DNA of 64,000 bases, taken from an uncultured delta proteobacterium (GTDB taxonomy: Bacteria; Desulfobacterota; Desulfobaccia; Desulfobaccales; 0-14-0-80-60-11). Made by a program: the position numbers and the translations under genes. Positions within the stretch are counted from its first letter, which is position 1, and every line of letters starts with the position of its first letter. Below are positions 3 through 19,949 of this stretch, piece by piece. The stretch covers positions 1,824,001 through 1,888,000 of the forward strand of contig CAWETI010000003.1 of the NCBI GenBank assembly GCA_963812015.1. The letters are read 5' to 3'. The notes below the pieces were generated by a model that ran no database searches, had not been told where the DNA came from, and saw only the letters and a list, made by a program, of their open reading frames with translations.

Positions 3-1238
3 GCCCAACTCCTCGCCTTGATGGACGGTCTTACCAAGCGCCAGAACGTCATTGTCATTGCCGCCACCAACATCCCCAACGCCCTGGACCCGGCGCTCCG
101 GCGGCCGGGGCGGTTCGACCGGGAGATCGCCATCCCCATCCCCGATCGCCATGGTCGGCTGGACATATTAGAAATCCACAGCCGGGGCATGCCCCTGGCC
201 GAGGACGTAAACATGAGCCACCTGGCGGAGATCACCCACGGTTTCGTGGGGGCCGACCTGGAAGCGTTGTGCCGAGAAGCGGCCATGATCTGCCTACGCC
301 GTCTCATGCCCGACATTGATTACGGCCTGGCCACCATCCCCTACGAGCAACTGGCCCAACTGGAAGTGCACATGGACGACTTCCTGGCCGCGCTTCGGGA
401 AGTGGAGCCATCCGCCATCCGGGAGGTGTTTGTGGAGGTCCCGGATGTGCGCTGGGAGGATGTGGGCGGCCTCCGGGCCGTGAAGGAGCGTCTCGAGGAA
501 GCGGTGGAGTGGCCTTTAAAGTATGCCCACATCTTCAAAAAAGCGGGCATCAGGCCCCCCAAGGGCATCCTCCTATCCGGGGCGCCGGGGTGCGGCAAGA
601 CCCTGCTGGCCAAGGCCATCGCTACTGAAAGCCGGGTGAATTTCCTGTCGGTGAAGGGGCCGGCCCTCATGTCCAAATATGTGGGCGAATCCGAGCGGGG
701 GGTGCGGGAAATGTTCAAGACCGCCCGGCAGGCGGCGCCCTGCATCATCTTCCTGGATGAGACTGAGGCCCTGGTCCCGGCCCGGGGGATGGGTGGCTCT
801 GATTCGCATGTCTCGGAGCGGGTCCTGAGTCAGTTCCTGGCGGAGTTGGACGGCATCGAGGAATTGAAGGGGGTGCTGGTGCTGGGGGCCACTAACCGCC
901 TGGACATGATGGACCCTGCGGTCCTGCGGCCGGGCCGTTTCGACGCCATCGTGGAGATTCCTTTGGCCGATGAGACGGACCGTCAGGAGATCTTTGCGGT
1001 CCACCTCCGGGGAAAACCCTTGGCCAAAGGGATCAGCGCCAAAAAACTGGCGGCCCGCAGCGAGGGCTTAAGCGGCGCCGAAATCGCCGGGGTGTGCAAC
1101 CAGGCGGCCCTGGCCGCGGTGCGCCGGGCAGTGGCGGCGGAAATCGCCGAAGCGGGCACAGGTTTGGCCCAGGTCCTGATCCTGCCTGCCGACCTGGAAG
1201 AAACCCTGGACGAGATGATGGGGGGACCGGGGGATTAA
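3..1238 (+). CDS. Cdc48/VCP-family AAA+ ATPase, 5'-truncated by window edge (positional equivalent of the AAA ATPase in Serratia-type gas vesicle loci)
   Basis: End of D1 (ATNIPNALDPALRRPGRFDREI), D1-D2 linker (EVEPSAIREVFVEVPDVRWEDVGG), D2 Walker A GAPGCGKT, Walker B IIFLDE, SRH ATNRLDMMDPAVLRPGRFD. Confidence 0.92.
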   Translation, partial: AQLLALMDGLTKRQNVIVIAATNIPNALDPALRRPGRFDREIAIPIPDRHGRLDILEIHSRGMPLAEDVNMSHLAEITHGFVGADLEALCREAAMICLRRLMPDIDYGLATIPYEQLAQLEVHMDDFLAALREVEPSAIREVFVEVPDVRWEDVGGLRAVKERLEEAVEWPLKYAHIFKKAGIRPPKGILLSGAPGCGKTLLAKAIATESRVNFLSVKGPALMSKYVGESERGVREMFKTARQAAPCIIFLDETEALVPARGMGGSDSHVSERVLSQFLAELDGIEELKGVLVLGATNRLDMMDPAVLRPGRFDAIVEIPLADETDRQEIFAVHLRGKPLAKGISAKKLAARSEGLSGAEIAGVCNQAALAAVRRAVAAEIAEAGTGLAQVLILPADLEETLDEMMGGPGD

Positions 1239-1242
1239 GGTG

Positions 1243-1419
1243 GTCAGCTATCAGCCATCAGCAAATAATTGGTGATTAATCGGAGTATACCTGCGGGTGC
1301 CGGGCCGTGGGGGGTAAACTCGCCCCTATTTGAGTGGCCAAAAGGATAATTTATTAATGCACGGCCAGGTGTGGTTTCTTTTTCTTTTGCTGAAAGCTGA
1401 CCGCTGAAGGCTGAAAGCT
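1243..1419. repeat. Inverted pair of heptamer tandem repeats (TCAGCTA/TCAGCCA ... GCTGAAA/GCTGACC)
   Basis: gtcagctatcagccatcagc at ~1243-1262 and gctgaaagctgaccgctgaagggctgaaagct at ~1389-1419 are approximate reverse complements. Confidence 0.6.
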
Positions 1420-1474
1420 TAACAAGCCCTTAGCCTTTCCTTCAATTTACAGATTTTTCAGGGGTAGGCGCACA

Positions 1475-2286
1475 ATGCCCCAAGGACTTTATTTATACTG
1501 CCTGGCCCGGTTGAGCCGGCTGCCCCCCTCCCCCTTTTGGGCCGGGGACTGGATGGCCAGAACTCGCTGGCAGTGGCAACATATCAGGATCTCGTGGCGG
1601 TCTGGAGTCCGGTGCCGGTGGAGGATTTCTGCGGGCCGGAGGCTGAAGAACGGATGCTGGACCTGACCTGGATTGGCCCCCGAGTCATCCGCCATCAGGA
1701 GGTGGTGGCCGGGGTGATGCGCCATTCTCCCGTGCTGCCGGTCCGGTTCGGGACCATCTTTTCGTCATTGGCTAACTTGGGAAAGGTTTTGCAGCGCCAC
1801 TCTGACACCATCACCGGGTTCCTGGAGCGCCTCACGGACCAGGAGGAATGGGCCGTCAAAGGGATGCTGGACCGGTCCGAAGCCCAAGAGCAACTGTTTT
1901 CTCTGAAGCTGGCCCGGGAGGCGGAACGGCTGGGGGCCTTATCGCCCGGAACCCGTTATTTTCATGAGCAACGCCTCCGGGCCGGGTGTGACCAGGAACT
2001 CCAGCTTTGGCTCCAAGAAGTGTGCCGCAAGCTGTGGACTCACCTCCGGGATTATGCCGCGGAGGTCCGGGAACGGCGGCTGCTCTCCCGGGAAGCCACC
2101 GGCAGTGATCAAGATATGGTCTGGAATTGGGCCCTGCTGATGCCGAGGCAGGCAGTGGGCGGTTTCCAATCCCTGATCCAGGACGTCAACGCCCGATTCG
2201 CCGATCGCGGCCTGAGGCTGGAATGTACCGGCCCCTGGCCCCCCTATAGCTTTTGCCCTGCCCTGGACATGGAGCCCGAGGCATGA
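1475..2286 (+). CDS. gvpF: GvpL/GvpF-family gas vesicle protein, apparent 1-nt frameshift at C-run ~1523-1534
   Basis: N-term MPQGLYLYCL in one frame continues as GRGLDG..RVIRHQEVV..VLPVRFGTIF..EWAVK..TGPWPPYSF in another; adding one C restores LPPLPLLGRG. Confidence 0.85.
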
Positions 2287-3035
2287 GTTGCTTGTTTTAT
2301 TGTATCCGCCGCCAGCCGCGCTCAGAATTATCGGGATCCCTGTTGGGGGTGGGGGGCCGCCCGGTATACCAGGTGGCGCACCGGGGGTTAAGTGTGGCCC
2401 TTTCCCAAATCGGCCTTGCCGACCTGGACCCGGATATTCCCAGGGTACGGGCCTATGAGCGGGTGGTGCTCTCCTATCACCGGAGGGGCGCCGTGGTCCC
2501 CATGCGTTATGGCTGCGTGGTGGAGCAGGAATCCCAGGCTATCCGGCTCCTGGAAGAACACGGCCCTCAATATGAGGCCTTGCTCCAGGAACTGGACGGC
2601 TGTGTGGAGATGGGGCTGCGGGTCTTGCTGCCGTCTGGACCTTGGGCTGAGGTGATCCCCGGCGGCCCGGAAAGTAGCCGGGAGGTGGCCGGGCCCCGCC
2701 CCCCTGACCCTGCGGCGGCACCGGACCGCTTAGGGTTGACTTATCTCACGGCCCGCAAGGCCCACTATGCCAGCCAGGACCGGTGGACCAAGGAGTACCG
2801 GCAGGCCGCGGAACGGTGCCGGGAGCAGTTCACCGGACTATATGTCAAATACAAAACGGAAGCTCCTTCCCCCCGCCTGCCCCTGCTTTCCCTCTATTTT
2901 TTGGTGCCCCGCCCGGCCGTGGAGGCTTTTCGCCAGGCGTTCCGGCAGCTCACCGAGAGCGAGCCGGCCCAGCTGATGCTGAGCGGTCCCTGGCCACCTT
3001 ATAATTTTGTCACGAGCGCTTCACGTCCCGGATAA
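2283..3035 (+). CDS. gvpF: GvpL/GvpF-family gas vesicle protein
   Basis: VVPMRYG, EMGLRV, SGPWPPYNFV motifs; ATGA overlap with the upstream stop. Confidence 0.88.
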   Translation: MSCLFYCIRRQPRSELSGSLLGVGGRPVYQVAHRGLSVALSQIGLADLDPDIPRVRAYERVVLSYHRRGAVVPMRYGCVVEQESQAIRLLEEHGPQYEALLQELDGCVEMGLRVLLPSGPWAEVIPGGPESSREVAGPRPPDPAAAPDRLGLTYLTARKAHYASQDRWTKEYRQAAERCREQFTGLYVKYKTEAPSPRLPLLSLYFLVPRPAVEAFRQAFRQLTESEPAQLMLSGPWPPYNFVTSASRPG

Positions 3036-3066
3036 TCCCCCGGGGTTGGTTGAAGAGGCCGTAGTC

Positions 3067-4553
3067 ATGAATACGCATGGAAATTCGCGGGATAATAGTC
3101 CGATATCACAGCGGTACCAGCAACTCTACGACATGCTGCTGGACGCCATTCCCTCGTCAGTGCTGCTCATCAATCAGGATCTGAGTATCGCTTCGGCCAA
3201 TCGTAACTTCCTGGAGAAAAACCGCCGTACCCTCACAGACACCATCGGCCACCGCCTGGATGAAGTGTTTCCGGCCATCATTATCGACCAGATGGATTTT
3301 CCGGGGCGCATCCGGCAGGTCTTCGAAAAAAACTTCCGCGTCAAGGGGGAACGGATGACCTATCGGGCCCCGGGCATTCCCCTGAGGATTTATTATTACA
3401 GCATCCTGCCTTTTCCTGGCAGGGGGTGGTGGAGCTGGCCATGCTGCTCATGGATGACGTCACCGAGCAGGTGCGTCTGAGTGAAGAGGTGCGCCGGGTG
3501 GAGCGCCACCTGGCCTCGGTGGTGGAAAGCGCCCAGGATATTGTTTTGTCCACTGACATGGAAGGCCAGATCTTGACCTGGAACACTGCGGCGGAGAGGC
3601 TCTCGGGCTTCACCCTCTACGCGATCCGGGGACACAACTTTTTCGACTTCTGCGCCGGAGACGATCAGGGCGAGATGGAGCGAGTTTTTACCAACCTCCA
3701 GGCCGGCAAAGACGCTCAAATGGCGGAATGGGATCTGAAAACCAGGGATGGCGGTCGCATTCCGGTTTCCTGGATCTTTTCTCCCATGAAGGACCACCTG
3801 GGCGAGACCGCCGGGATCGTGGCGGTGGGGCGGGACCTGACGGAGCGCCGAAAATTTGAGGCCCAGTTGCTGCAGACGCAGAAACTGGCCGCCCTTGGGG
3901 TCATGGCGGGGGGCATCGCCCATGAGATCCGCAATCCCCTGGCGGTTTGCTCCAGTGCCGCCCAGTTTATCATGGACGGCGATCTTGAACCTCAATTTCA
4001 GCAGGAGTGCGCCGAAAAGATCCATGCGGGCATCCTGCGGGCCTCCATGATTATTGAAAATTTGCTGCGCTTCGCCCGTCCCTCGGTGAAACCCGACATC
4101 AAGAAGATTAACCTGACCACTCTCCTGGAGGAAACCCTGTCCCTGGTAACGAACCAGGCCCGAATTGCCAAGATTGAGCTGCAGGCGCAACTGCCTCCGG
4201 AGCCCATCTTGATCAGCGGCATGGAAGCCTTGCTGCAGCAAGCCTTCATGAACCTGCTGCTCAACGCCATCAAAGCCATGCCCGATGGGGGGGGATTGGG
4301 CGTCGCCCTGGGACAGGCCGATGGGGAAGCCTGGGTCAGTATTAGGGACACCGGCCAGGGCATCGCCCCCGGGGACCTGAACAATATCTTCGACCCCTTT
4401 TACACCACCGCGCCGGTGGGCCAGGGCACGGGGTTGGGTCTCTCCATCTGCTATTCCATCATCAAGCAGCACTTCGGCACCATCACCGTGGAGAGCGGGG
4501 CAGACCAAGGCAGCATCTTCACCGTGAGATTGCCCATCTTAATACGCGGTTAG
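3067..4553 (+). CDS. PAS-PAS sensor histidine kinase (NtrB-like; GvrB-equivalent), apparent 1-nt frameshift at TTTT 3411-3414
   Basis: PAS1 (LLDAIPSSVLLINQDLSIASANRNF) joins PAS2 + H-box GIAHEIRNPL, N-box NLLLNAIKAM, G boxes DTGQG/FYTT/GTGLGL if one T is added. Confidence 0.88.
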
Positions 4554-4562
4554 GGCGGTGGG

Positions 4563-4952
4563 ATGACTGATCCAGGCGACCTGATTCTCATTGTGGACGA
4601 TGAGCCGGATATGTGCTGGGCCCTGGAACATCTCCTCAACAAACAGGGTTATGTCACCCGCAAAGCCCTGACGGCCCTGGAGGCTCTGAAGTTGATGGAG
4701 CAGCACCGATTCGGCTGCGCCTTCCTGGACGCCAAGCTACCGGATATGGACGGCCTGGAACTGGCCCGACGCATCCAGGACAGGGCGCCGGACATGCACA
4801 TCCTGATGGTGTCCGGTTACTTTTACCGGGATGACGCCTCCATCCAGGAGGCCATTGCCCAAGGGGTAATCATCGATTTCATCAGCAAGCCCTTCCTCCA
4901 ACAAGAAATTCTCCGGGTTTTGAGAAAACTTGAACGGACATATTTCTTCTAG
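4563..4952 (+). CDS. Single-domain response regulator receiver (GvrC-equivalent)
   Basis: ILIVDDEPD, FLDAKLPDMDGLEL, SG, FISKPF. Confidence 0.92.
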   Translation: MTDPGDLILIVDDEPDMCWALEHLLNKQGYVTRKALTALEALKLMEQHRFGCAFLDAKLPDMDGLELARRIQDRAPDMHILMVSGYFYRDDASIQEAIAQGVIIDFISKPFLQQEILRVLRKLERTYFF

Positions 4953-4986
4953 AAGACCGCAAGGGCATAGGTTAGCTACCCTAGAG

Positions 4987-5018
4987 TAGGGAAATGATTC
5001 CATAGAGCAAATTCCCTA
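4987..5018. promoter_or_regulatory. Candidate enhancer (UAS) inverted repeat TAGGGAA-N18-TTCCCTA upstream of the gvpA promoter
   Basis: Perfect 7-bp inverted repeat ~70-100 bp upstream of a -24/-12 motif, with an AT-rich stretch between. Confidence 0.4.
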
Positions 5019-5088
5019 GCCCCGGCCGGCATCCTCCTCTTCAGACATAACCTACTTATTTTAATGGATTTACTCTACCTTCTGGTCC

Positions 5089-5104
5089 TGGCATGCTTCT
5101 TGGA
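5089..5104 (+). promoter_or_regulatory. Putative sigma54 (-24/-12) promoter of gvpA
   Basis: TGGCATG-CTTC-TTGGA vs consensus TGGCACG-N4-TTGCW (correct spacing, C>G at -12), 65 nt before the gvpA ATG. Confidence 0.6.
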
Positions 5105-5169
5105 TAAGTAGGCCTTGAGGCATTGCCTCTCTCTCAAAACTCCCAAAAATTACATGAAGGAGGTTCCCC

Positions 5170-5388
5170 ATGGCCAAAGTACAGAAGTCAACAGATTCCT
5201 CCAGCCTGGCGGAAGTTGTCGACCGCATCCTGGACAAGGGTATCGTCATCGATGCCTGGGTCAAGGTGTCGCTGGTGGGCATCGAACTGTTGTCCATTGA
5301 AGCCCGGGTGGTCATCGCCTCCGTGGAAACCTACCTGAAGTACGCCGAAGCCATCGGCCTGGCGGCCAGCGCGGCCGCTCCCGCGTAA
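5170..5388 (+). CDS. gvpA: Major gas vesicle structural protein GvpA
   Basis: [55 protein letters not shown] signature; RBS AAGGAGG. Confidence 0.98.
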
Positions 5389-5420
5389 GGATGCTTCTGG
5401 GGAAAGGTTCCTCTTGCGCT

Positions 5421-5441
5421 GAGGGGCCGCTTCGGCCCCTC
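5421..5441 (+). terminator. Strong GC stem-loop after gvpA (partial terminator or mRNA stabiliser; no U-tract)
   Basis: GAGGGGCCG-CTT-CGGCCCCTC, perfect 9-bp stem. Confidence 0.6.
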
Positions 5442-5535
5442 GACGGAAGGGGGTTGCGGTTGAGGAGAATTGAGCCGCAACTGCGATGCCTAGGAAAATT
5501 CCCCGGCACGGTCCAAAGGAAAGGAGATACTTCTT

Positions 5536-6087
5536 ATGGGTCCTTTTACGGAAAGTATGACCCGGCTGTGCGGTGAGATCGTGGCCCTGCGCGGGGCGCG
5601 CCTGACCTTCGTCCGGGATCTGGGCCAGGATGTGGCCGCCATGAAGGCTGACTTTCGCCGGGCGCATGCCGAAATGGGGCAGCGGACCAAGGCGGAACGC
5701 CAGGGTTTCGTCAAAGCCTTGGGCCATGAAGTGGCGAGCCTGATGGCGGGGCTTCATCGGGCCCATAAAGCCATGGCCCACCAGACCAAGGCGGAGCGGC
5801 GGGCTGCCGTGAACCACTTAAAGAAAACCGTAGGCGGCATGCGCCGGGAATTTGCCCTGGACCTGGCGGGAGCGCACCGGGTCTGGTTCGGCCCCACTCC
5901 GGCTGAACGCCGGGCCCAAGCGGAGGCCGAGCGCCGCGCCAAACATGAGGCGGAACAGCGGATCAAGGAAGCCGCGGAACGGGACCGGATGGCCGCCCTG
6001 GCTATGGCCAAGGAAGAGGCCGTCCGGCATCAAGCCGCCCAAGGCAATAAAGAAGAGGCGGGACGCCCGGGCAAAAAGAAGGGGTGA
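5536..6087 (+). CDS. gvpC: GvpC-like helical repeat protein
   Basis: 33-aa repeat FVRDLGQDVAAMKADFRRAHAEMGQRTKAERQG / FVKALGHEVASLMAGLHRAHKAMAHQTKAERRA; position right after gvpA; RBS AAGGAG. Confidence 0.75.
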   Translation: MGPFTESMTRLCGEIVALRGARLTFVRDLGQDVAAMKADFRRAHAEMGQRTKAERQGFVKALGHEVASLMAGLHRAHKAMAHQTKAERRAAVNHLKKTVGGMRREFALDLAGAHRVWFGPTPAERRAQAEAERRAKHEAEQRIKEAAERDRMAALAMAKEEAVRHQAAQGNKEEAGRPGKKKG

Positions 6088-6110
6088 AATCTGCAAGCCC
6101 CTGATAAGGC

Positions 6111-6503
6111 ATGGCAATGACCCAATTCAAGCACGCCACCGAGAAAACCGTGCAGAAAAGCCGCTCAGAAGGAGAAATGGTGGAAGTTACCTGTTCTTTC
6201 TGCAGCGGCCGCGGCAAAGATCCTTTTGGGATCATGTCCTGGCTTTCCACCTGCTGCGTCTGCGGCGGGAGGGGAGTGGTGCAGGTGCCGGCGCTCCATC
6301 GGCCCTGCGCCCACTGCCGGGGCACCGGGGCCATCAAGACCTTCACCTGCACCGTGTGCCGCGGCAGCGGTCACGTCCCGTTGATCCCCGGACTTCTCCG
6401 GGCCTGCCCGGAGTGCCGAGGCACCGGCGACGACGACGCCTCGGCCCTGGCCTGCATGACCTGCCGGGGTCGAGGTTGGGTGCCCCAAGCGAGTCACAGA
6501 TAA
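6111..6503 (+). CDS. DnaJ-type zinc-finger protein without J domain (6x CxxCxGxG)
   Basis: CSFCSGRG, CCVCGGRG, CAHCRGTG, CTVCRGSG, CPECRGTG, CMTCRGRG; no HPD motif. Confidence 0.85.
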   Translation: MAMTQFKHATEKTVQKSRSEGEMVEVTCSFCSGRGKDPFGIMSWLSTCCVCGGRGVVQVPALHRPCAHCRGTGAIKTFTCTVCRGSGHVPLIPGLLRACPECRGTGDDDASALACMTCRGRGWVPQASHR

Positions 6504-6568
6504 CAGATTACCAATCCTGCCCCTGGCTTCCAGGGGCAGTTTCATCGCCAGTTAGAGGAGCAACGCGC

Positions 6569-7579
6569 ATGAGTGGTGAGCAACGGAAAAGGGCCACGGT
6601 GGCCGTGGTTAAGGTGGAGTCCCGGGACGACCAGGTGACGCCGGAAGCCGGCCCGGATTTCGTGGAAACGGGTTATGTCCAGGACCTCAGCAAACGGGCC
6701 CTGGCCTACCTGGCGGTGGGTTATCCGGTCCACTTCGCCGGTCCGGCCGGCACGGGCAAGACCACCCTGGCTTTTCATGTGGCGGCGCAGCGGGGCCGTC
6801 CGGTGGTACTGATCCACGGGGACGACGAGTTCGCCAGTTCGGATCTGGTGGGGCGCCACTCCGGCTACCGCAAACAGAGACTCATCGACAACTACATCCA
6901 TTCCGTCCTCAAGACGGAAGAGTCCATGAATGTCACCTGGATGGACAACCGCCTCACCATGGCCTGCAAGGACGGCTACACCCTCATTTACGATGAGTTC
7001 ACCCGGTCCCGGCCCGAGGCCAACAACGCCCTCTTAAGTATCCTGGAGGAGAAGATCCTCAATCTGCCCAAGATGTCCCGGGGCGGCGACGGCTACCTGG
7101 AGGTCCACCCGGATTTTCGAGCCATTTTCACCTCCAATCCCGAGGAGTACGCCGGGGTCCACAAGACCCAGGACGCCCTTATGGACCGGCTCATCACCGT
7201 CAATCTGGGGCATTTCGACCGGGAAACAGAGGTGCAAATCGCCATGACTAAATCCGGTCTGTCTCGCCTGGATGCCGAGATCATCGTGGATGTGGTCCGG
7301 GAACTCCGGGGCTTTGGGGTCAACAACCACCGCCCTACCGTCCGGGCCTGCATCGCTATTGCCAAGATCCTGGCGCACCAGGGGGCCCGGGCTCATAAAG
7401 ATGACCCGGTCTTCCAGTGGGCTTGCCGTGACGTGCTCAACACCGACTCCGCCAAGGTGACCCGGGGCGGCCAGTCCCTTATGGGAGAAAAAGTGGGAGA
7501 AGTGATCGACACGGTTTTAGGTTCACGCCCCCAGACCCCGCTGAGAGCAGGGGGGGTGCGAAGCCGCGCCAAGGAGTAA
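6569..7579 (+). CDS. gvpN: Gas vesicle AAA+ ATPase GvpN
   Basis: GPAGTGKTT, LIYDEFTRSRPEANN, FTSNPEEYAGVHKTQDALMDR; ATG 6569 with RBS GAGGAG. Confidence 0.95.
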   Translation: MSGEQRKRATVAVVKVESRDDQVTPEAGPDFVETGYVQDLSKRALAYLAVGYPVHFAGPAGTGKTTLAFHVAAQRGRPVVLIHGDDEFASSDLVGRHSGYRKQRLIDNYIHSVLKTEESMNVTWMDNRLTMACKDGYTLIYDEFTRSRPEANNALLSILEEKILNLPKMSRGGDGYLEVHPDFRAIFTSNPEEYAGVHKTQDALMDRLITVNLGHFDRETEVQIAMTKSGLSRLDAEIIVDVVRELRGFGVNNHRPTVRACIAIAKILAHQGARAHKDDPVFQWACRDVLNTDSAKVTRGGQSLMGEKVGEVIDTVLGSRPQTPLRAGGVRSRAKE

Positions 7580-7583
7580 CCGT

Positions 7584-7880
7584 ATGACCATTCCCAGGAG
7601 AGGTATCCAGGACATTCGCACCCTGACGGGGAAAGTGAGAAAGGCCACGATTCCCCATGAGGCCTATCTGCGCATTAGTCACATTGAAATGGAAAAGGCC
7701 CGCAAGACCCTGGAGAGCGAGAAGGCCAGGCAATTGATGGCAGACATCGGTGCCCGCCTCGCAGAAATTGAGGCCGAAAAAGAAAGTCTGCTGCAGTCGT
7801 TGGGGGAAAAGGGCGGTAGAGCCCCTCCGGGGCGGACCGGCCCGGCACGCCACAGCGGCGGCTTTAAAATAAAATATTAA
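7584..7880 (+). CDS. gvpV: GvpV-like coiled-coil gas vesicle accessory protein
   Basis: Follows gvpN; RGIQDIRT..AYLRISHIEMEKAR..coiled coil..FKIKY pattern recalled for GvpV-type proteins. Confidence 0.6.
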   Translation: MTIPRRGIQDIRTLTGKVRKATIPHEAYLRISHIEMEKARKTLESEKARQLMADIGARLAEIEAEKESLLQSLGEKGGRAPPGRTGPARHSGGFKIKY

Positions 7881-7906
7881 AGTTTAATTAATCAAAATTA
7901 CAGAGG

Positions 7907-8113
7907 ATGCCGATGCTTATTCTTAAGGATGCCAACCAAGTTCGGACCATGCGCCAGGTGAAGAGTTACCGCTCCTGCCCCACTTCCACGGGCCTGCCCA
8001 TGTGGGGGTCGGAGTTAGGCCGCATGTATCAGGAAGAGGTGGCCCGGTGCAACCGGAAGTTGCGGCGCCGCTGGCGGGCCGCGGCCTGGCGCAACCGTTG
8101 CGGCTGCCGGTGA
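7907..8113 (+). CDS. Small basic hypothetical protein in gvp operon
   Basis: Co-directional 68-aa ORF filling the gap, GAGG upstream. Confidence 0.5.
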   Translation: MPMLILKDANQVRTMRQVKSYRSCPTSTGLPMWGSELGRMYQEEVARCNRKLRRRWRAAAWRNRCGCR

Positions 8114-8129
8114 AAGGATCGAGTGCCCT

Positions 8130-8498
8130 ATGGAATACGCCATGCAGGTCCTTAACCGGTACGGCCCGGTTTCAGGCAGGCCCACCCGCCGGAAACGGTT
8201 CGTGGATAAAGTGTCCTGCGCCTACTGCGGCGGCCGGGGGGCCGACCCCAAGTACAGCAGCGCCTCTGGTTGCCCCGTATGCCGCGGCGCCGGGGTCGTG
8301 CGGGTCATGCCCCCGGTGGTGAGCTGCCGCCAGTGTAGCGGCACCGGCCAAGTGGGGGGTGATTTGATCTGCCTGACCTGCAAGGGGGTGGGGATGGTAT
8401 CGGTCCCCGTTGAGGCCGATACCTGTTCGCGCTGCGGCGGCACCGGCGAAGAGGGGGTTTTTTATTGTAACGCCTGTAAAGGACAAGGGATCGCCTGA
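8130..8498 (+). CDS. Second DnaJ-type zinc-finger protein without J domain (6x CxxCxGxG)
   Basis: CAYCGGRG, CPVCRGAG, CRQCSGTG, CLTCKGVG, CSRCGGTG, CNACKGQG; same layout as 6111-6503. Confidence 0.85.
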   Translation: MEYAMQVLNRYGPVSGRPTRRKRFVDKVSCAYCGGRGADPKYSSASGCPVCRGAGVVRVMPPVVSCRQCSGTGQVGGDLICLTCKGVGMVSVPVEADTCSRCGGTGEEGVFYCNACKGQGIA

Positions 8499-8529
8499 CT
8501 TCGACAGACGTCAGAAATGGAGAATTGAC

Positions 8530-8733
8530 ATGAAAATTAATTGTCTGTCCTGCGGCTTTAAAGTGGACCTGGATGATACGTATGACGACTTTGAGGGTCC
8601 CATCAAGTGCCTGTGCGGCGCTTTGCTGGAGATCAGGACCGAAGAGGGCATGCTCAAGGCCATCAAGATGGGGGAACCGCTGTCCCGCACAGTCCTCAGG
8701 ACCAGGCGGATGGAAGGCGGCGCCACCCCCTGA
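8530..8733 (+). CDS. Small Zn-ribbon protein
   Basis: MKINCLSCG...IKCLCGALLEI; RBS GGAGA before ATG 8530. Confidence 0.7.
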   Translation: MKINCLSCGFKVDLDDTYDDFEGPIKCLCGALLEIRTEEGMLKAIKMGEPLSRTVLRTRRMEGGATP

Positions 8734-8836
8734 GGAGCGTGCAGGCCGGGTCAGGCGACGGAAGTTGTCGCAATGCAGGATTATCTGGAAGCCGTGGGTG
8801 TTGCCTTTCGGTTTCCCGTTGATGTGAGACAAGGAT

Positions 8837-9598
8837 ATGGCGGCGCACGCAGCAGCGAAAAGCGGCAGATACTTATACGCCATAGTGACCGCTCCCGGGG
8901 AGCGGACCTATGATTTTACCGGTATAGACGGGGCCCCGGTGTACAGCATCGCCAATGGGCAGGTGGCCGCAGTGGTGAGCGACGTTGTAAACGACAGGAT
9001 CAGCCCGGAACGGCGGCATCTGGCCGCCCAACAGGCGGTCCTCAAGGGGCTGTTGTCCAGGGCCGACGCCATGCTTCCCATGGCCTTCGGCATCATTGCC
9101 GACGGTCCCAAAGCCATCCAGAAGATCCTGTCCCGCAACCAGGCGGCCTTCCTCCAGCAACTCCAACGCGTGGCCGGGATGGTGGAAATGGGACTGCGGG
9201 TCTCCCTGGACGTCCCCAATATCTTTGAATATGTCGTCAACACGCATCCAGAGTTGCGGGCCGCCAGGGATCGCTTCCTCGGCCCCTACCGCAACCCTTC
9301 CCAAGAAGACAAGATCGAGCTAGGGCGACTCTTTGACCATCTCCTGAACGAGGATCGGGAAGCCTTTACCGAGCAGGTGGAGGAGATCCTGTCCGGTTAT
9401 TGCCGGGAAATTAAGCGGAACAAAAGCCGCAACGAAAGCCAGGTGATGAGCCTGGCCTGTCTGGTGCCTCGCAATGGACAGGAGCGGTTCGAAGAGGGCG
9501 TCTTTGCCGCGGCCAAGCTCTTCGACAACAATTTCACCTTCGACTACAACGGCCCCTGGGCGCCCCACAACTTCGTGGAACTGAATCTTGGACTGTGA
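8837..9598 (+). CDS. gvpF: GvpF/GvpL gas vesicle protein
   Basis: YLYAIV, GIDG, MLPMAFG, EMGLRV, DYNGPWAPHNFV. Confidence 0.92.
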   Translation: MAAHAAAKSGRYLYAIVTAPGERTYDFTGIDGAPVYSIANGQVAAVVSDVVNDRISPERRHLAAQQAVLKGLLSRADAMLPMAFGIIADGPKAIQKILSRNQAAFLQQLQRVAGMVEMGLRVSLDVPNIFEYVVNTHPELRAARDRFLGPYRNPSQEDKIELGRLFDHLLNEDREAFTEQVEEILSGYCREIKRNKSRNESQVMSLACLVPRNGQERFEEGVFAAAKLFDNNFTFDYNGPWAPHNFVELNLGL

Positions 9599-9622
9599 CA
9601 CCTGAGCTCTGAAGGAGATGTG

Positions 9623-9943
9623 ATGTTTCTCGTTGACGACATCTTACTGTCCCCTGTGAAAGGCGTTCTTTGGGTGTTCCGGGAGGTCCACGACGCCGCC
9701 CAGCAGGAGTTGGCCGGCGAAGGCCAAGCCATCACCGCGGCCCTGAGCGAGCTTTACATGCGGCTGGAAACCGAGCAGATCACCGAGGAGGAGTTCGACG
9801 CCCAGGAAAAGGTGCTCCTGGACCGCCTGCAGGCGGAAGAAAAGACCGCGGCACCTGAGAAGAAACCGGCCAAGCAACGCTCCAAGGCCAAACCGACCAG
9901 GAGAAAATCTTCGCCCGGGGTGAAACCGGCCACCCTAGTCTGA
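9623..9943 (+). CDS. gvpG: Gas vesicle protein GvpG
   Basis: MFLVDDILLSPVKGVLWVF...LSELYMRLETEQITEEEFDAQEKVLLDRL; Lys-rich tail. Confidence 0.9.
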   Translation: MFLVDDILLSPVKGVLWVFREVHDAAQQELAGEGQAITAALSELYMRLETEQITEEEFDAQEKVLLDRLQAEEKTAAPEKKPAKQRSKAKPTRRKSSPGVKPATLV

Positions 9944-10101
9944 CATGACGCCCATAGGTAAGCGCCGGCCAGATGAAATCAGGTGATCAACCAACGGCAG
10001 CAGGAAAGCGGGTGGCTCGGGACATGGCGCCGGAAGCATAGGGAAGGGCTTGATGAGGTTGCGAACACTTTACCCGCTTGACACGGAAGGGGTCACCCCG
10101 G

Positions 10102-12106
10102 ATGTCCATAATTTCGCTTTCCAACATCACCATGGGGGCAAAGGGCGTGCCCGATTTCTTAGAGAATCCCCATTTCAGACTGATATTCTTCGGCGGCAAG
10201 GGCGGGGTCGGAAAGACCACATGCGCCGCGGCCTCCGCCCTCCGTTATGCCCGCCGGTCCCCCCTGGGCTCGTTCCTTCTGGTCTCCACTGATCCGGCCC
10301 ATTCCCTGACCGACAGTATCGGCGATTTTCATCTCCCCGACAATTTAAAGATTCTGGAGTTCAATGCCCAGGATTCTCTGGCGACCTTCAAGGCCAGGCA
10401 CCGGGCCAAGTTTGCCGAGATTGCCGCCCGGGGCACCTTCCTGGATGAAAAGGATATTCGCCGCATCCTGGACCTCTCCCTGCCCGGCCTGGATGAACTC
10501 ATGGCTTTGCTTGCCATCGCCGGCTGGGTGGAAACCCGGGCCTACGACCTTATCGTGGTGGATACCGCGCCCACCGGGCACACGCTGCGACTGCTGACCA
10601 CGCCGGAGTTGATCCGCGGCTGGCTCAAGGCCCTGGACGCCCTGCTGGCCAAGCACCGCTTCATGCAGCAGCGGTTCCGTGGTTCGTATCAGCGGGACGA
10701 ACTGGACGAATTTCTCCTGGATCTGGCCGCGTCAGTGAAGCAGATGGAGGCTCTGCTGCGCAATCCCCGCGCCTGCCGGTTTGTGCCGGTGATGTTGGCG
10801 GAAGAGGTGGTCATCACCGAGACCTTGCAGCTCCTGAGTCAGTTGCAGCGGATGCATATCCCGGTCACGGAGGTGGTGGTCAACCGCCTCTATCCGGAGA
10901 ATTCCTGCCCTCTATGCGCCGAAGGGCGGCGGCGGCAACGACAGCTCCTGAACGAGCTTTTTAGCCGCGGCTCCTTAGGCCGATATACCTGGTGGGGCGT
11001 GCCCCTGTGCCCGGAGGAAATGCGAGGTCCAGTCCTTGAGACCCTTTGGGATGGGGTCAGTGTGTTTGATGCCGCGCTGCCGACCCGTCTCCAGCCCCCC
11101 TTGGAAATACCGCCCCGGGTAGAGGCTGCGCCCCCCTGCCCCTCTGCCAAGACTACGTTCTTGATTTTCGCCGGCAAGGGGGGCGTGGGCAAGACCACCC
11201 TGGCCTGCGCCACCGCGGTGCGCCTGGCCCAGGAGTTTCCGGGAAAACAGGTCTTGCTCTTCTCCACCGACCCGGCCCACTCCCTGGCCGCCTGTCTGGA
11301 GGTGAGCATTGGCCCCCAACCGGTACGCCTCGGCCAGGGACTGACAGCCATGGAGATCGACGCCCCAGGGGAATTCGCCGCTTTAAAGAGACAATACCAC
11401 CAAGAGCTGGAGAAGTTCCTGCAAACCGCGTTCGAGAATTTCGATGTCCCCTTCGACCGCCAGGTGATGGAACGGTTGCTGGACCTCCCCCCCCCCCGGC
11501 CTGGACGAGATCATGGCCTTGGTGCAAGTCATGGAATTTTTGGAAAAGGGCCGCTACGATATTTTTATATTGGATTCGGCCCCTACCGGACATCTCCTTC
11601 GCCTCCTGGAACTGCCGGAACTAGTGGACCAGTGGCTTAAGACGTTTTTCGGCTTGCTCTTGAAGTACAAGCTGACCTTCCGGTTTCCGGACATCTCCCA
11701 GCAGTTGGTAGGAATTTCCCGTAACCTGAAACAACTGAGAAACCTGTGGCGGGACCCGGCCCGGGCGGCGCTCTACGCCGTGACCATCCTTACGGAAATG
11801 GCCTTCCAGGAGACCAGCGACCTGATGGCGGTCTGTAGGCGGCTGGGGGTGTCGGTGCCACTGCTGCTGCTCAACCTCGCCACCCCGGCCTTGGATTGTC
11901 CCCTGTGCGCCGCCCTGAACCGCCGGGAGGCCCTCATTCGGGATAAATTCCAGCAAACCTTTGCCGGTCATCAAACCGTCATCTATCGCCAGAGCGAACC
12001 TCGGGGCCTGAAACGACTCACTGCCTTGGGGCAGGCCTTGTACCGGTCCAGGATAATGGAGAACCACCATGGGGCTGTTGCTGATATGCCCGCATTGTCA
12101 AGCTAA
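10102..12106 (+). CDS. Tandem two-domain ArsA/GET3-family ATPase, frameshifted at C11 run 11487-11497
   Basis: Two copies each of GKGGVGKTT, STDPAHSL, PGLDE, D(T/S)APTGH and CPLC; second half continues in ORF 11513-12106; exact start uncertain. Confidence 0.9.
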
Positions 12107-12530
12107 GGTACCGTTGGTCTTGCGGGCTTGTTCGGCTTGCGGTGCCGACCTGCGGACTCTGCCGCCGACCGACCGCCGTTATTTCATCGGCAAGTCGGCG
12201 GCTGCGGCATCCGCATCCCTGGTCCCGAAGATGATTCCCGGGTCAAACCCGGAGACCGTGGAGGTGGAATTGATGGTGCCATACCCGGAAACCATGCTGC
12301 CGGAAGCCTCGCTCCCGGAGAGCAAAGATGTGTCGTTGTGCGAGGCCCTGGACCGCATTCTCAATAAGGGCGCCGTGCTCTTTGGGGAAGTGATGATTTC
12401 CGTGGCCGATATCGATCTAGTCTACCTGGGGCTCCAGGTCATCCTGGCCTCTATGGAAACCGCCCGGGGATTTAAGCCTGGGGGGGAGGGGCAGTTGGGA
12501 CCGAACCTTTTTGCCAAGGGCGCATGCTGA
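12069..12530 (+). CDS. GvpA/GvpJ/GvpM-family minor gas vesicle protein with N-terminal Zn ribbon
   Basis: N-term CPHC..CSACG; Pro-rich linker; C-term SLCEALDRILNKGAVLFGEVMISVADIDLVYLGLQVILASMET. Confidence 0.85.
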   Translation: MGLLLICPHCQAKVPLVLRACSACGADLRTLPPTDRRYFIGKSAAAASASLVPKMIPGSNPETVEVELMVPYPETMLPEASLPESKDVSLCEALDRILNKGAVLFGEVMISVADIDLVYLGLQVILASMETARGFKPGGEGQLGPNLFAKGAC

Positions 12531-12898
12531 TGAAATCCCCGGAACCGGCTCAAGTGGAATCACAGGCCATCAGCGATTTTGCCAAGGTCATGCAAGGCGG
12601 TGCCGCTTTAACGGCCCCATCTCCGGGTAGCCAGACCCCCCGGATCAACCTGGACCAGGACAACGTCAAGAACAGTTTGGGACAACTGGTCTTGACCCTG
12701 GTGAAACTGCTTCACGAACTGCTGGAGCGCCAGGGCATCCGGCGCATCGAGGCCGGGTCCCTCACGGACGCCCAGATTGAGCGGCTGGGGTTGACCTTGA
12801 TGAAACAGGCTCAAGAGATCGACCGACTCCGGCAGGAGTTCGGCCTGGAAGAAGACGACCTGAATATCGACCTTGGCCCCCTGGGCCAACTCCTGTAA
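12524..12898 (+). CDS. gvpK: Gas vesicle protein GvpK
   Basis: LGQLVLTLVKLLHELLERQGIRR..LTDAQIERLG..FGL..DLNIDLGPLG. Confidence 0.93.
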   Translation: MLMKSPEPAQVESQAISDFAKVMQGGAALTAPSPGSQTPRINLDQDNVKNSLGQLVLTLVKLLHELLERQGIRRIEAGSLTDAQIERLGLTLMKQAQEIDRLRQEFGLEEDDLNIDLGPLGQLL

Positions 12899-12911
12899 GG
12901 AGGAACTGCGC

Positions 12912-13226
12912 ATGGCCAGACAACAAGGCATCCAGAGTTCCATTCAGAGCACCAATCTGGCGGATCTCTTGGAACGCATCCTGGACAAGGGGATCGTCAT
13001 CGCCGGCGACATCAAAATCCGGCTGGTGGAAGTGGAACTCCTCACTCTGCAGATTCGCCTGGTGATCTGCTCGGTGGACAAAGCCAAAGAATTGGGGATA
13101 GATTGGTGGGTAGCCAACCCGGCCTTTAATTCCCAGGCCCCTTCGGAAGAGCTGGCGGCCTCCCTTAACAAGATCGACGAGCGCTTGGGGCGCCTGGAAT
13201 CTGCTATAGCCGTGGCCGGCTCCTGA
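12912..13226 (+). CDS. gvpJ: GvpA-family protein GvpJ-like
   Basis: [61 protein letters not shown]. Confidence 0.88.
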   Translation: MARQQGIQSSIQSTNLADLLERILDKGIVIAGDIKIRLVEVELLTLQIRLVICSVDKAKELGIDWWVANPAFNSQAPSEELAASLNKIDERLGRLESAIAVAGS

Positions 13227-13995: not shown

Positions 13996-14019
13996 TGAAA
14001 ATAGTGAAACTGTTGATAT

Positions 14020-14106
14020 GCCTGGGTGGCGGAATGGGTAGACGCAAGGGACTTAAAATCCCTCGGTCGCAAGGCCGTGCCGGTTCGAGTCCGGCCCCAG
14101 GCACCA
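14020..14106 (+). tRNA. tRNA-Leu (anticodon TAA)
   Basis: Acceptor GCCTGGG/CCCAGGC-A-CCA, anticodon arm AGGGA-CT-TAA-AA-TCCCT, long variable arm, GGTTCGAGTCC. Confidence 0.97.
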
Positions 14107-14161
14107 GTTAATAAAATGGGTTAACCATTTCCGGTCAACCGCTTTATGCTTTCACGCTGTC

Positions 14162-14183
14162 CAGGGATAACCCAGGGATAACC
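14162..14183 (+). repeat. Tandem CAGGGATAACC x2 (third copy at 20118-20128), candidate integrase arm-type sites
   Basis: Exact 11-mer occurs just inside both att sites. Confidence 0.6.
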
Positions 14184-14875
14184 TGAGTGCGGAAAATTAC
14201 CCTTTTGGGTGCCTGAAAATCGTCTGTCCTCTGTTCTGAAATGTCAATTTCGTGCCCTTGTTCCTGAACCTTTTTCTTCCCCTCCCCTCATTGCCTCTCT
14301 GTGGGCTTCATATGCAACCGGTTTTGGAGGGGGGCTGTTCCCACCTCAAGGTACCCCTCTCCTGGCATTGATCTCACACTTAGAAGGACAGTTTTAAGCG
14401 AATAACCCATAGCAAGGGGTATATGAGGTGAGGGTAAGCCTATCCGTACAAGGTGAGGCTTCTCAGAGAGTTATCCGGAAGGCCAAGGTCATGGGCTGAG
14501 AGGGTTTCGGGCAAGAGAGGCAACCTCGGGACTGAAGGTGGTCCCCCCTTTGCTATATATGACCGCCACGGGGATTTTTTCAAAAATATATCGAGGAGTG
14601 AGAGCGACAGGCCCCCCTGTGCACAGGGCGCCTCAAAAATTTTTGACACAAGGATTGTCGGTACCCATTCCTTAAACCGGTCTTAAAAAAGCATGACATG
14701 CTTTGTAAGGCGTGTTCGCGCTTCGACCCAGGGTTGGGTCTTGGTTGAGGAAAGATACTCCCCCTGGCGGGACCTAGCTCAAAAATTTTAAAATGGAAAA
14801 TCTGCCCGGTTACTCCTTTAGCCACCATCATTACTTGCGCCCGCCGAACTTCTTCAATGCTAAGGGCATATGCGA

Positions 14876-17566: not shown

Positions 17567-17662
17567 CTCCCCCCCTGCAGAACCGTCGGCGCCTCCGGTT
17601 TCCCGGCGTTTGGCTTGGAACGCCCCTGCTCCAGTCGGAGTAAAGAGCCTAATCAAATAATT

Positions 17663-17854
17663 TTAGGCGTTGTTCGGCTTGACAAAGTTATTTGGCTGTG
17701 ATAATATCTCATACATGCGCCTGGGGTTGCGTTTATCCCATCGAAAAGCGGCGACAAATCGCCCCTCTTCATCAACGATACCCAGACCGCCGGTTTGACC
17801 GGGATCAATTCCCACAAACAGTTTTCTATCTAAAGGTATTTGGAGATCAGCCAT
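17663..17854 (-). pseudogene. Short ORF resembling the N-terminus of a RuvC-like resolvase, inside the IS left end
   Basis: MADLQIPLDRKLFVGIDPGQTGGLGIVDEEG; hhGIDPG-x-TG motif typical of RuvC beta1; runs out through IRL. Confidence 0.5.
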
Positions 17855-18737
17855 GGACAAACTCCCTTCTCTCATTGAAATCCTCAAGAAATTCGACACT
17901 GAGGAAAAGTGTATCGCCCATTTTGAGCGCATACGCTGGCCTAACGGCCTTGTCTGCATCAAATGCGGTAGTCCCCGAGTGATGAAGTTTAAGGCGTTGG
18001 GGAAAACCAAGAAGGTGCGCCAGCTTTACGAGTGCAAAGACTGCCATTATCAATACTCGGTAACTGCCGGGACAAGCTTTCATAATTCCCATGTGCCTCT
18101 TACCAAGTGGTTCCTGGCAATCTACCTGATTTGCTCTGCGAAAAAGGGCGTGGCCGCCCGCCATCTTCAACGCCATCTTTCGGTAGGGGTCGAAACTGCA
18201 TGGTATATGGCTCATCGGATTCGCCTCGCTATGTCAGAGGACGAGGAGTTTTGCGCGAAGTTTGCCGGTATTTGCGAAGTTGACGAGACTTATGTAGGTG
18301 GCAAAGGTAAAGGTCCACACGGGCGCGGAGCCGCCAATAAAACTCCCGTAGTAGGGATAAAAGAGCGGACATCAGGCAAAATCCTTATGAAAGCGGTTGA
18401 TAATGTCAAGGCCAGCACCTTGCGGGGTTTCATCCGCAAACACGCCTCGCCTGGCTCTGAAATCCAGACTGATGATTTTCGGTCTTACCTCTGGCTTGAT
18501 AGCTCTGAATTTGTCCATAATGTCGTGAACCATGGCGAAAAAAAGTATGTGAAGGCCGGGAATATTCACGTGAACGGGATTGAGAATGTTTGGTCCTTGT
18601 TCAAGAGAGCTATCACCGGCGTTTTCCATAAGGTTTCTGCCAAGTATCTGCCTCTGTATCTCAATGAGTTCGCTTTCCGGTTCAATAACCGGGAGCAAGT
18701 CAATATGTTGGATGAGGTCTTAAAAACGAGTTTCTAA
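17853..18737 (+). CDS. IS1595-family (ISXO2-like) DDE transposase
   Basis: Zn ribbon CIKC/CKDC, HTH, VDETYVGGK, IQTDD, NGIENVWS, YLNEFAFRFNNR. Confidence 0.95.
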   Translation: MDKLPSLIEILKKFDTEEKCIAHFERIRWPNGLVCIKCGSPRVMKFKALGKTKKVRQLYECKDCHYQYSVTAGTSFHNSHVPLTKWFLAIYLICSAKKGVAARHLQRHLSVGVETAWYMAHRIRLAMSEDEEFCAKFAGICEVDETYVGGKGKGPHGRGAANKTPVVGIKERTSGKILMKAVDNVKASTLRGFIRKHASPGSEIQTDDFRSYLWLDSSEFVHNVVNHGEKKYVKAGNIHVNGIENVWSLFKRAITGVFHKVSAKYLPLYLNEFAFRFNNREQVNMLDEVLKTSF

Positions 18738-19873: not shown

Positions 19874-19949
19874 TAGGAAGGCGACACACTTTGTCAAGCC
19901 GAACATCGCCTAATTTTAAATGTCAATTAAATGCAGATTATGCGGCAAC

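Follow-up and report, generated by a model that had tools for sequence, protein, structure and literature searches.

The gas vesicle genes at the start of this 64,000-nucleotide stretch of Desulfobacterota DNA (the window) form, by their sequences and order, a buoyancy-organelle cluster of the Serratia sp. ATCC 39006 type with its operon order inverted, and the accessory genes interleaved with them for the most part have names already, gvpH, gvpW, gvpY and gvpZ. We see an even chance that the products of these four genes are an optional quality-control kit for misassembled shell protein and not a required assembly line. An essential GvpA relay is unlikely, because published single deletions leave vesicles normal in Serratia and give conflicting results in E. 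coli.

The locus opens 3.5 kb 5' of the window, and all named genes were detected on the + strand, in agreement with the full co-directional gvp set described in an earlier note on this DNA. The Serratia-type gene set is present (gvpA1, C, N, V, F1, G, A2, K, A3, gvrA, H, Z, F2, F3, gvrB and gvrC). Compared with the Serratia locus, gvpA1CNVF1GWA2KXA3Y / gvrA gvpH Z F2 F3 gvrB gvrC (Tashiro 2016, PMC4982088), it has, likewise, a sigma54-type site 5' of gvpA and every named gene, upstream flank counted, but the TPR gene gvpX, for which no counterpart was found in the locus. The differences are the inverted operons, the move of gvpY ahead of gvrA, and the addition of two CxxCxGxG proteins, a Zn ribbon, a ribbon on GvpA2 and three frameshifts in the assembly. 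The Serratia-like order with swapped blocks that the earlier note described is thus real, but it is not new: it was published in 2016, and inverted operons were already on record for Desulfomonile tiedjei and Psychromonas. The 5' flank holds gvpY (C3:1820472-1821131), gvrA (sigma54 activator), gvpH (Hsp20) and the 5' part of gvpZ, so that both the sigma54 activator and the Hsp20/GvpH expected upstream were found there. In the enterobacterial cluster G782 the order is A1-C-N-V-F1-G-(Get3)-A2-K-(TPR)-A3-(GvpY homologue) / gvrA-H-(Cdc48)-F2-F3-gvrB-gvrC, which agrees with the printed Serratia order and places Get3 in the GvpW slot and Cdc48 in the GvpZ slot. Identities to G782 are 97% for A1, 68% for Z, 55% for N, 53% for H, 48-50% for W and 45% for Y. 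Among same-family genomes, 23/36 carry gvp genes, and a same-genus Get3 labelled 'Desulfobaccales bacterium' bears out the proposed host lineage. The earlier note took this lineage to have seen little gas vesicle work; delta-proteobacterial GvpZ and GvpV were published in 2016, and a Desulfobacterium gvp cluster already produces vesicles in E. coli.

The major shell protein gene gvpA1 (5170 to 5388; NF006874 of NCBIfam, 133 against a cut-off of 100) is present here as a single copy, while 15/17 relatives carry gvpA-short gvpC-gvpA-gvpC. Neither GvpC nor GvpV matched the profile library (none for GvpC in Pfam). The gvpC-like gene (5536 to 6087) was assigned by its 33-residue repeats, lag 33 giving 20 matches and other lags at most 13, and by weak similarity (29-37% identity) to GvpC of G782 and G438; gvpV (7584 to 7880) was assigned by its position and because it is 32-37% identical to the gene that follows gvpN in the same two genomes. 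The AAA+ ATPase gene gvpN (6569 to 7579) scores 350 against a cut-off of 266.8 (TIGR02640). The three GvpL/F proteins, GvpG, GvpK and the two minor GvpA paralogues are all above Pfam cut-offs: gvpF2 (1475 to 2286; PF06386, 177 bits), in which the frameshift detaches the N-terminal YLYCL strand, gvpF3 (2283 to 3035; 170 bits), gvpF1 (8837 to 9598; 213 bits), gvpG (9623 to 9943; PF05120), gvpK (12524 to 12898; PF05121), the GvpM/S-like gvpA2 (12069 to 12530; PF00741) and the GvpJ-like gvpA3 (12912 to 13226; PF00741, 58% identity to A3 of G782). The gvpA2 gene overlaps the end of gvpW and codes for an N-terminal Zn ribbon (weak Zn_Ribbon_1 match) that is lineage specific, as most family loci have it and more distant loci do not.

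The regulators are gvrB (3067 to 4553), a PAS-PAS histidine kinase with HisKA and HATPase_c domains, and the receiver protein gene gvrC (4563 to 4952; PF00072). A sigma54-type -24/-12 site, found by pattern match, lies at 5089 to 5103 on the + strand, about 85 bp 5' of gvpA; its -12 element reads TTGG in the family, and 14/17 family loci with gvpA1 have a sigma54-type pattern at similar spacing. Because this site before gvpA is conserved, the locus probably comprises two transcription units, with GvpH/GvpZ and GvpW likely in separate operons. Scans for sigma70 promoters (5 against 3.4) and terminators (14 against 14.3) were at chance level. The RNA-run contigs X15 and X16 span the region, but they stem from relatives with small word shares and their coverage is no sign of expression or co-transcription.

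The Cdc48 reported in the earlier note is borne out. The 3' part of the gene occupies positions 3 to 1238 of the window, the ORF beginning 5' of it (stop to stop G000:C3:1823055-1825238), and the product is a double-AAA ATPase of the Cdc48/p97 type with an N domain and two AAA domains (TIGR01243, 865 against 803; PF02359 above cut-off; CDC48_N and CDC48_2). Given its 68% match in the GvpZ slot, we identify Cdc48 as GvpZ, and the Hsp20 as GvpH. Across many phyla the extra genes turn up again next to gvp genes, the point that the earlier note proposed to check by a neighborhood survey. At 44 gvp loci centered on Get3, and within the reach of the contigs, Cdc48 was found at 17, Hsp20 at 19, a Zn finger at 9 and GvpY at 7; by these counts the members of the kit are not inherited together.

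The GET3-like ATPase of the earlier note also stands, as a tandem Get3/TRC40-type protein (10132 to 12106; TIGR00345, 256 against 135) that is split here by an extra base and is one ORF in 12 relatives. It is the GvpW of Serratia, since it occupies the same slot between G and A2 in G782; the orthologue in genome G005 is 49% identical to the ArsA-family ATPase AUG98569 of Serratia 39006, five accessions away from GvpY (AUG98564). Aligned with the ArsA of Comamonas, GvpW shows two inserts, of 14 and 19 residues, that follow switch II; it lacks the three metal-binding cysteines of ArsA and carries CxxC in both halves. It shares the P-loop, switches I and II, the TRC40-type groove insert and the CxxC zinc clamp with the tandem bacterial Get3s (Farkas 2019, PMC6593721, section 7), with archaeal TRC40 (3zq6) and with algal ArsA1 (5zme), the last two being its best PDB matches. 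A core gvp gene lies near 46/50 high-scoring Get3 loci and 1/30 low-scoring ones, with the threshold of 210 set after inspection of the data. In a quick, midpoint-rooted tree (162/181 domains kept, 16 family loci thinned out), one clade contains 104/105 gvp-labelled domains (SH-aLRT 95), and its seven 'non-gvp' rows come from the 3-7 kb contigs L222, L223 and L226, plus L224. The gvp Get3s thus form, on this tree, what appears to be a single gvp-specific clade with single-domain and fused forms, which is new here. The single-domain genes are often ordered gvpH-Get3-gvpZ. Castillo and Saier (2010, PMC2963123) had already found ArsA-like genes and Hsp20 in gvp operons, proposed that the former act in 'energizing' biogenesis, and called the gvp-linked forms always two-domain. 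Their clusters 4 and 6 of two-domain ArsA homologues agree with ours in the tandem ATPase of about 640 amino acids, the Hsp20 and the missing ArsA cysteines; the differences are the gvp-linked single-domain forms found here in the same clade and the mapping of the gene to Serratia GvpW. Farkas et al. list no function for the tandem group, and neither 'gas' nor 'vesicle' occurs in the main text of their review, whereas here these genes are tied to gvp operons. Get3 is missing from 2/16 family loci spanning the slot and present in 15/29 gvpN-positive genomes of the phylum.

The two DnaJ zinc fingers of the earlier note survive in part. Both proteins have the CxxCxGxG domain (PF00684, 39.7 and 38.8 against 32.7), and in neither (110-140 amino acids with Zn-finger motifs only) did Pfam match a J-domain with its HPD motif, TIGR02349 scoring 36-40 against 377, so the DnaJ part fails. 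CxxCxGxG repeats are common to DnaJ's central zinc finger, anti-TRAP and these proteins, but there are six motifs here and four in DnaJ, and the substrate-binding domain is absent as well. ZnF1 (6111 to 6503; PF00684 and PF15777), directly 5' of gvpN, is a stand-alone protein with six such motifs found in 17/17 family loci spanning the slot, while ZnF2 (8130 to 8498) is patchy (10/16). That the CxxCxGxG proteins are without a J-domain and patchy is new here; they were not found in the enterobacterial cluster G782. Ser39006_001280, between gvpC and gvpN, was considered as a ZnF1 orthologue and rejected, as the G782 slot holds a Pro/Lys-rich low-complexity ORF without CxxCxGxG. The small Zn-ribbon protein (8530 to 8733), present in 16/16 family loci, is weakly LysW-like, with PF21344 at E 0.004-0.03, under cut-off, in 4/5 members. 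We take the Zn-finger and Zn-ribbon proteins as lineage-specific additions that likely serve as adaptors near GvpN. Between gvpV and gvpF1 there is also a basic 68-residue ORF (7907 to 8113; no Pfam match), missed by the earlier note, that an iterated profile found in 30/41 loci with both V and F1, plus G782 and G438; it is a conserved, unnamed gene, new here.

The gene upstream of gvrA is GvpY, with a predicted TIKI/EreA/ChaN fold, also new here. It is present in 25/29 gvpN-positive and 2/372 gvpN-negative Desulfobacterota genomes, a closer co-occurrence with gvpN than that of any chaperone, while the gvp plasmids of haloarchaea and of Nostoc yielded no GvpY. The AF2 model (pLDDT 89.3) has a parallel beta-sheet core, and in the structure comparison (VIA) 6/8 top rows were superfamily members, the best being a moderate match (Z 9.5, rmsd 4.1, 156 residues). 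Foldseek gave no match at E <= 0.001 (ChaN was at rank 6), the ESM Atlas returned hypothetical clusters alone, and a GvpY profile gave only E 0.13 and 0.9 against PDB sequences; 16/26 members match PF01963 weakly (best E 2e-4). Conservation is strict at H31 (142/143), Q88-D89 (150/150), E129 (150/150), R170 (150/150) and H196 (148/148), and H31, Q88-D89, R170 and H196 fall at the expected strand ends of the predicted fold. The predicted fold and the predicted layout of His, acid, Arg and His resemble those of TIKI/TraB/EreA/ChaN proteins (ChaN 2g5g, EreC 6xcq, Bcr136 2qgm), from which GvpY differs in being minimal (190-230 amino acids), soluble, under the Pfam TraB cut-off and with Gln-Asp for Glu: of the 2His/2Glu set of RRSP, the first Glu is absent and Gln-Asp stands at the second. 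Some TIKI folds are non-catalytic.

While the gene identities, the orthology to Serratia slots, the cross-phylum linkage and the Get3-type features come from our data, the dispensability comes from published deletions. The deletion check proposed for the extra genes has largely been done on GvpZ, GvpW and GvpH of Serratia. In the native host, single deletions of each preserve vesicles; in E. coli, one study found the xAM signal weakened or lost when W, Y, Z or H was deleted, and another, in BL21-AI, that the same deletions raised yield. A rise in yield fits plain cost saving as well as clearance. Shell protein aggregates and turns toxic when it outpaces its assembly factors (PMC12848028). The optional kit would hold, unfold and clear misassembled shell protein when supply exceeds assembly: GvpH and the GvpW groove would bind exposed hydrophobic segments of GvpA, GvpA2 or GvpG, GvpZ may pull subunits out of aggregates or stalled shells, and GvpY may cut a Gvp substrate. 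Points against such a kit are the uneven co-occurrence of its genes, the likely separate operons of GvpH/GvpZ and GvpW, and the departure of GvpY from the RRSP set together with its moderate structural match.

It is unlikely, though worth keeping in mind, that the four proteins dismantle vesicles, with GvpY as a gas-vesicle-specific TIKI-family protease that nicks GvpC or GvpA and opens aged or collapsed shells, GvpZ extracting subunits and GvpW and GvpH capturing monomers for reuse or disposal. The enzyme-like invariance of GvpY on its predicted fold, its closer tie to gvpN, and the formation of vesicles despite deletions, with yield up in one study, speak for it, but had the proteins been pure destroyers, deletion should have raised the signal in the other E. 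coli study, where it fell, and GvpY is not found on the plasmids named above. If true, it would mean active lowering of buoyancy and recycling of shell protein, and would explain why the genes look 'non-essential' in formation assays. Quite unlikely is a role of GvpW like that of eukaryotic Get3 proper, in which it would ferry a helix-anchored minor protein, GvpG or GvpA2/GvpM, to a membrane or a site of nucleation without the help of Cdc48 and Hsp20. The groove insert, the position of gvpG immediately 5' of Get3 in 37/52 blocks (A2 or F2 is 3' in 33) and the single hydrophobic segments predicted in GvpG and GvpM (PMC2963123) are consistent with it; however, GvpG and GvpA2 are essential and GvpW is dispensable, none of the loci examined has a linked gene for a membrane receptor, and Farkas et al. 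(PMC6593721) prefer general chaperone roles for bacterial Get3s. A complex prediction of Get3 with GvpA and Zn scored 0.00, with the controls not folded, and argues neither for nor against binding.

We consider very improbable an obligatory forward relay in which Hsp20, Get3, the Zn fingers and Cdc48 in turn hand GvpA on to assembly, close to the dedicated chaperone relay of the earlier note. The cross-phylum linkage, the Hsp20-Get3-Cdc48 adjacency in single-domain loci and the weakened or lost xAM signal favor it. Against it are the native and BL21-AI deletions, by which it is largely refuted already for single genes, complete-looking clusters without Get3 (L041, L042, L085, L089, L093, L103) or without Zn fingers (G782), and GvpF, the documented GvpA binder; its novelty is also lost to the ArsA-like and Hsp20 genes known since 2010. 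An ArsA of an arsenite pump, with the remaining extras as hitch-hikers, is scarcely credible as a reading of the ATPase, for although databases label its homologues 'arsenite-transporting ATPase', the cysteines are absent, the non-ArsA inserts present and the clade gvp-specific, TIGR04291 gives 137 against a cut-off of 650, and the window locus has no ars operon (no arsB, acr3 or arsD).

The bARGSer ultrasound reporter is built on the Serratia cluster, whose GvpW, X, Y and Z have carried the label 'unknown function' since 2016. With W placed in the gvp-specific Get3 clade, Z as Cdc48, X as a TPR protein and Y as a predicted TIKI-fold hydrolase, existing deletion strains become direct tests. 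These assignments may account for the disagreement between the deletion studies in E. coli and for the proteotoxicity limiting heterologous expression, and the tandem CxxC Get3 group, with no known function in 2019, gains a candidate client class.

The copy in the window carries a 1-base loss in a C run at 1523-1528 of gvpF2 (an indel against relatives), another near 3408 that splits gvrB, and a 1-base insertion among the 11 Cs at 11487-11497 of gvpW. Both gvpF2 and gvrB are whole in relatives and essential in Serratia. Because three genes are frameshifted in the assembly, this copy may be decaying, or the shifts may be long-read errors; it is otherwise an ordinary member of the family-wide cluster. 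None of 82 control ORFs was split by tblastn, and net-frame indels numbered 4 in 58 kb of coding DNA taken as control, of which two look like alignment edges and each may lie in either genome, against 3 in about 10 kb of the locus.

The gas-vesicle locus belongs to a known system, in a variant shared across the family. The gvp genes at 3-13226 all run in one direction according to Pfam and NCBIfam searches, which bear out the set of gvp and extra genes that an earlier note had read from the DNA, and the locus starts about 3.5 kb upstream of the window. The upstream flank holds a 219-aa ORF with no match in the Pfam or NCBIfam libraries, the 5' portion of the Cdc48 gene, and both the sigma54 response regulator (gvrA) and the Hsp20 protein (GvpH) that the note had suggested looking for there. 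The first gene block reads Y-gvrA-H-Z-F2-F3-gvrB-gvrC and the second A1-C-ZnF1-N-V-orf68-ZnF2-Zr-F1-G-W-A2-K-A3, where W is a tandem Get3-type ATPase, ZnF1 and ZnF2 are stand-alone CxxCxGxG proteins and Zr is a small Zn-ribbon protein. A sigma54-type site lies at 5089-5103, and 14 of the 17 family loci having gvpA1 show the pattern with comparable spacing. As sigma54 and GvrA have been proposed to drive the gvpA1 operon of Serratia sp. ATCC 39006 (PMC11778176), the locus is likely organized as two transcription units. The gvpA/gvpC region (5170-6087) is a single unit, whereas most relatives (L033-L051) have gvpA-short gvpC-gvpA-long gvpC; two gvpA1 copies occur in 15 of 17 same-family loci, against one in the window.

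Gas-vesicle domains were found in 26 of 61 related genomes (23 of 36 in the same family), and the gene order was the same in twenty stretches fetched from relatives. A protein of a same-genus genome carries the name Desulfobaccales, which gives the lineage. Among same-family loci spanning the respective slots, ZnF1 was present in 17/17, Zr in 16/16, the Get3 gene in 14/16 and ZnF2 in 10/16. One same-genus genome (G015) has 12 gas-vesicle-domain matches over at least four contigs (L038, L037, L051/L052); its L038 Get3 is 54% identical to that of the window, yet has near relatives labelled Syntrophales, which may reflect either a second cluster or mixed binning.

The accessible text of Tashiro 2016 (PMC4982088) counts GvpV, W, X, Y and Z among proteins of unknown function, credits delta-proteobacteria with GvpV and GvpZ, and reports an inverted operon order for Desulfomonile tiedjei and Psychromonas. 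With 46% identity, the 219-aa ORF of the upstream flank matches P0392, a protein named "GvpY, Serratia sp. ATCC 39006". The Serratia protein AUG98569, a 637-aa ArsA-family ATPase, shares 49% identity with the intact gvpW orthologue of a family relative (G005) and is five accessions away from GvpY, which is the place of gvpW in the gene order printed by Pfeifer 2022 (PMC9501494). An enterobacterial genome with a Serratia-type cluster (G782) codes for an ATPase 99% identical to AUG98569, placed between G and A2; in the same cluster a TPR protein separates K from A3, GvpY follows A3, and gvpH is followed by a Cdc48 with 68% identity to that of the window. From this layout and the position of AUG98569, W is therefore the Get3, X the TPR protein and Z the Cdc48, the names being assigned by slot. 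The gene in the GvpX slot (L351:9359-9655, PF13174 over cut-off) is missing from the window. The G782 cluster contains neither a CxxCxGxG protein nor a Zn ribbon, and its A2 has no ribbon. The basic 68-aa orf68, between gvpV and gvpF1 (7907-8113), has no Pfam match; it is kept in 30 of 41 loci and has a counterpart in G782 (about L351:5390-5581).

In alignments, GvpW has P-loops and a CxxC in both halves and, compared with a true ArsA, inserts of 14 and 19 residues following switch II; it has none of the ArsA cysteines, and its closest solved structures are algal ArsA1 and archaeal TRC40. Among 80 Get3 loci returned from GTDB genomes, a core gvp gene was nearby in 46 of the 50 scoring at least 210 and in 1 of the 30 below; the association that the note had proposed to survey recurs across many phyla (Acidobacteriota, Verrucomicrobiota, Planctomycetota, Chloroflexota, Gemmatimonadota, Myxococcota, Bacteroidota and Nitrospinota, among others). 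A Nostoc plasmid also carries the Get3, with a gene for a Cdc48-like ATPase next to it downstream. Of 401 genomes sampled from the phylum, 19 had a Get3 above 200 bits; 15 were gvpN-positive, and two more had gvp genes adjoining the match. A quick tree of 162 domains united 104 of the 105 gvp-labelled rows (SH-aLRT 95) in a group with single-domain, N-half and C-half subgroups, a pattern compatible with a single internal duplication. Castillo and Saier 2010 (PMC2963123) had noted that gvp operons contain two-domain ArsA homologues together with Hsp20, and a tandem CxxC Get3 group is described, in the text available of Farkas 2019 (PMC6593721), without a function. In three loci (L221:8000-10300, L222 and L224, from G126, G340 and G186), ORFs of the Get3 clade measure 728-809 aa, include an additional partial segment at the N-terminus and have an Hsp20-like match nearby. 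The gvp locus of a Methanomicrobiaceae archaeon (L143:6200-7100) includes both a CxxCxGxG protein and a single-domain Get3; because the latter is not part of the main gvp clade, recruitment to gvp loci may have happened twice. Elsewhere, the gene is reduced to an N-terminal remnant between gvpG and gvpA2 (L099:2400-2750, G115), a natural deletion, and in G273 (L220) the V-Zr-F1-G-Get3-A2-K-A3 block has an inverted, degenerate duplicate beside the main copy.

What the note had called DnaJ Zn fingers do carry six CxxCxGxG-type motifs each, but a Pfam search found no J-domain in either protein. Related proteins are encoded in Chloroflexota, Planctomycetota and Methylococcaceae, as well as at one methanogen locus, and outside the family the finger is followed by gvpN in 13 of 24 blocks. 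Judging by this adjacency, our guess is that they are adaptors at GvpN. We found no description of CxxCxGxG genes in the portions of the gas-vesicle literature searched.

The gvpY orthologue lies at positions 1820472-1821131 of the source contig (G000:C3; L002:6472-7131), 3.5 kb upstream of the window. Its profile matched 25 of the 29 gvpN-positive genomes of the phylum sample and 2 of the 372 gvpN-negative ones (27 of 401 in all, kin not being independent). Four of 72,556 plasmids matched, every one carrying gvpN, which in an Octadecabacter plasmid is 25 kb away. In metagenomes, a core gvp gene shared the stretch in 68 of 80 GvpY loci, and in 37 of 40 stretches of at least 5 kb; the family comprises 961 clusters at E <= 1e-10. 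The AF2 model (pLDDT 89.3) matched ChaN (Z 9.5), HopBA1, the PMT C2 domain, EreC, RRSP and Bcr136, which the consulted text of PMC6254334 assigns to the TIKI/Ere superfamily. Pfam TraB was matched weakly by 16 of 26 members, and JGI labels four homologues "TraB". Near-invariant residues in 150 diverse members are H31, Q88-D89, N111, E129, E137, R170 and H196. GvpY is thus predicted to have a TIKI/EreA/ChaN fold, and we infer that it may act as a hydrolase. Our search of non-subscription literature returned no paper pairing gas vesicles or GvpY with TraB or TIKI; this predicted fold and the tight gvp linkage are, along with the identification of GvpW and GvpZ, what we add.

Identifying GvpW and GvpZ connects existing deletion data to the chaperone hypothesis, and weakens it. 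In Serratia, vesicles still form after deletion of gvpC, W, X, Y, H or Z, as summarized in Hurt 2023 (PMC10344784), and the Tashiro 2016 excerpts report no discernible phenotype while allowing for kinetic or condition-specific roles. In Escherichia coli, loss of H, W, Y or Z weakened or eliminated the signal in one study (Hurt 2023), and single deletions of the same genes increased yield in another, as far as its available text goes (bioRxiv 10.1101/2024.10.30.621148). These results together favor a conditional role, and the best model, to which we give an even chance, is that the non-core genes form an optional quality-control kit. The boldest, a dedicated machine for dismantling vesicles, we consider improbable. 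The dedicated relay for GvpA inferred in the note keeps the linkage of the extra genes to gvp loci, but an obligatory relay is ruled against by vesicle formation in the Serratia deletions and by the increased E. coli yield.

The window differs from relatives by three 1-base indels in C runs, in gvpF2 (1523-1528), gvrB (about 3408) and the Get3 gene (11487-11497), where the relatives' contigs carry intact frames. A sequencing run with 96% of the words, possibly the source data, agrees with the window across the gvrB break. Because gvpF2 and gvrB count as essential genes in Serratia, this copy is decaying or mis-assembled, and in our judgement the former is somewhat the more probable. Just downstream of the locus, a tRNA-Leu(TAA) (14020-14106) is followed by a low-GC stretch (0.44-0.55, within 14000-20000) with a 926-aa pentapeptide-repeat protein on the minus strand (14876-17656) and a transposase of the IS1595 family (17853-18737); the stretch is probably a small island without relation to the gvp genes.
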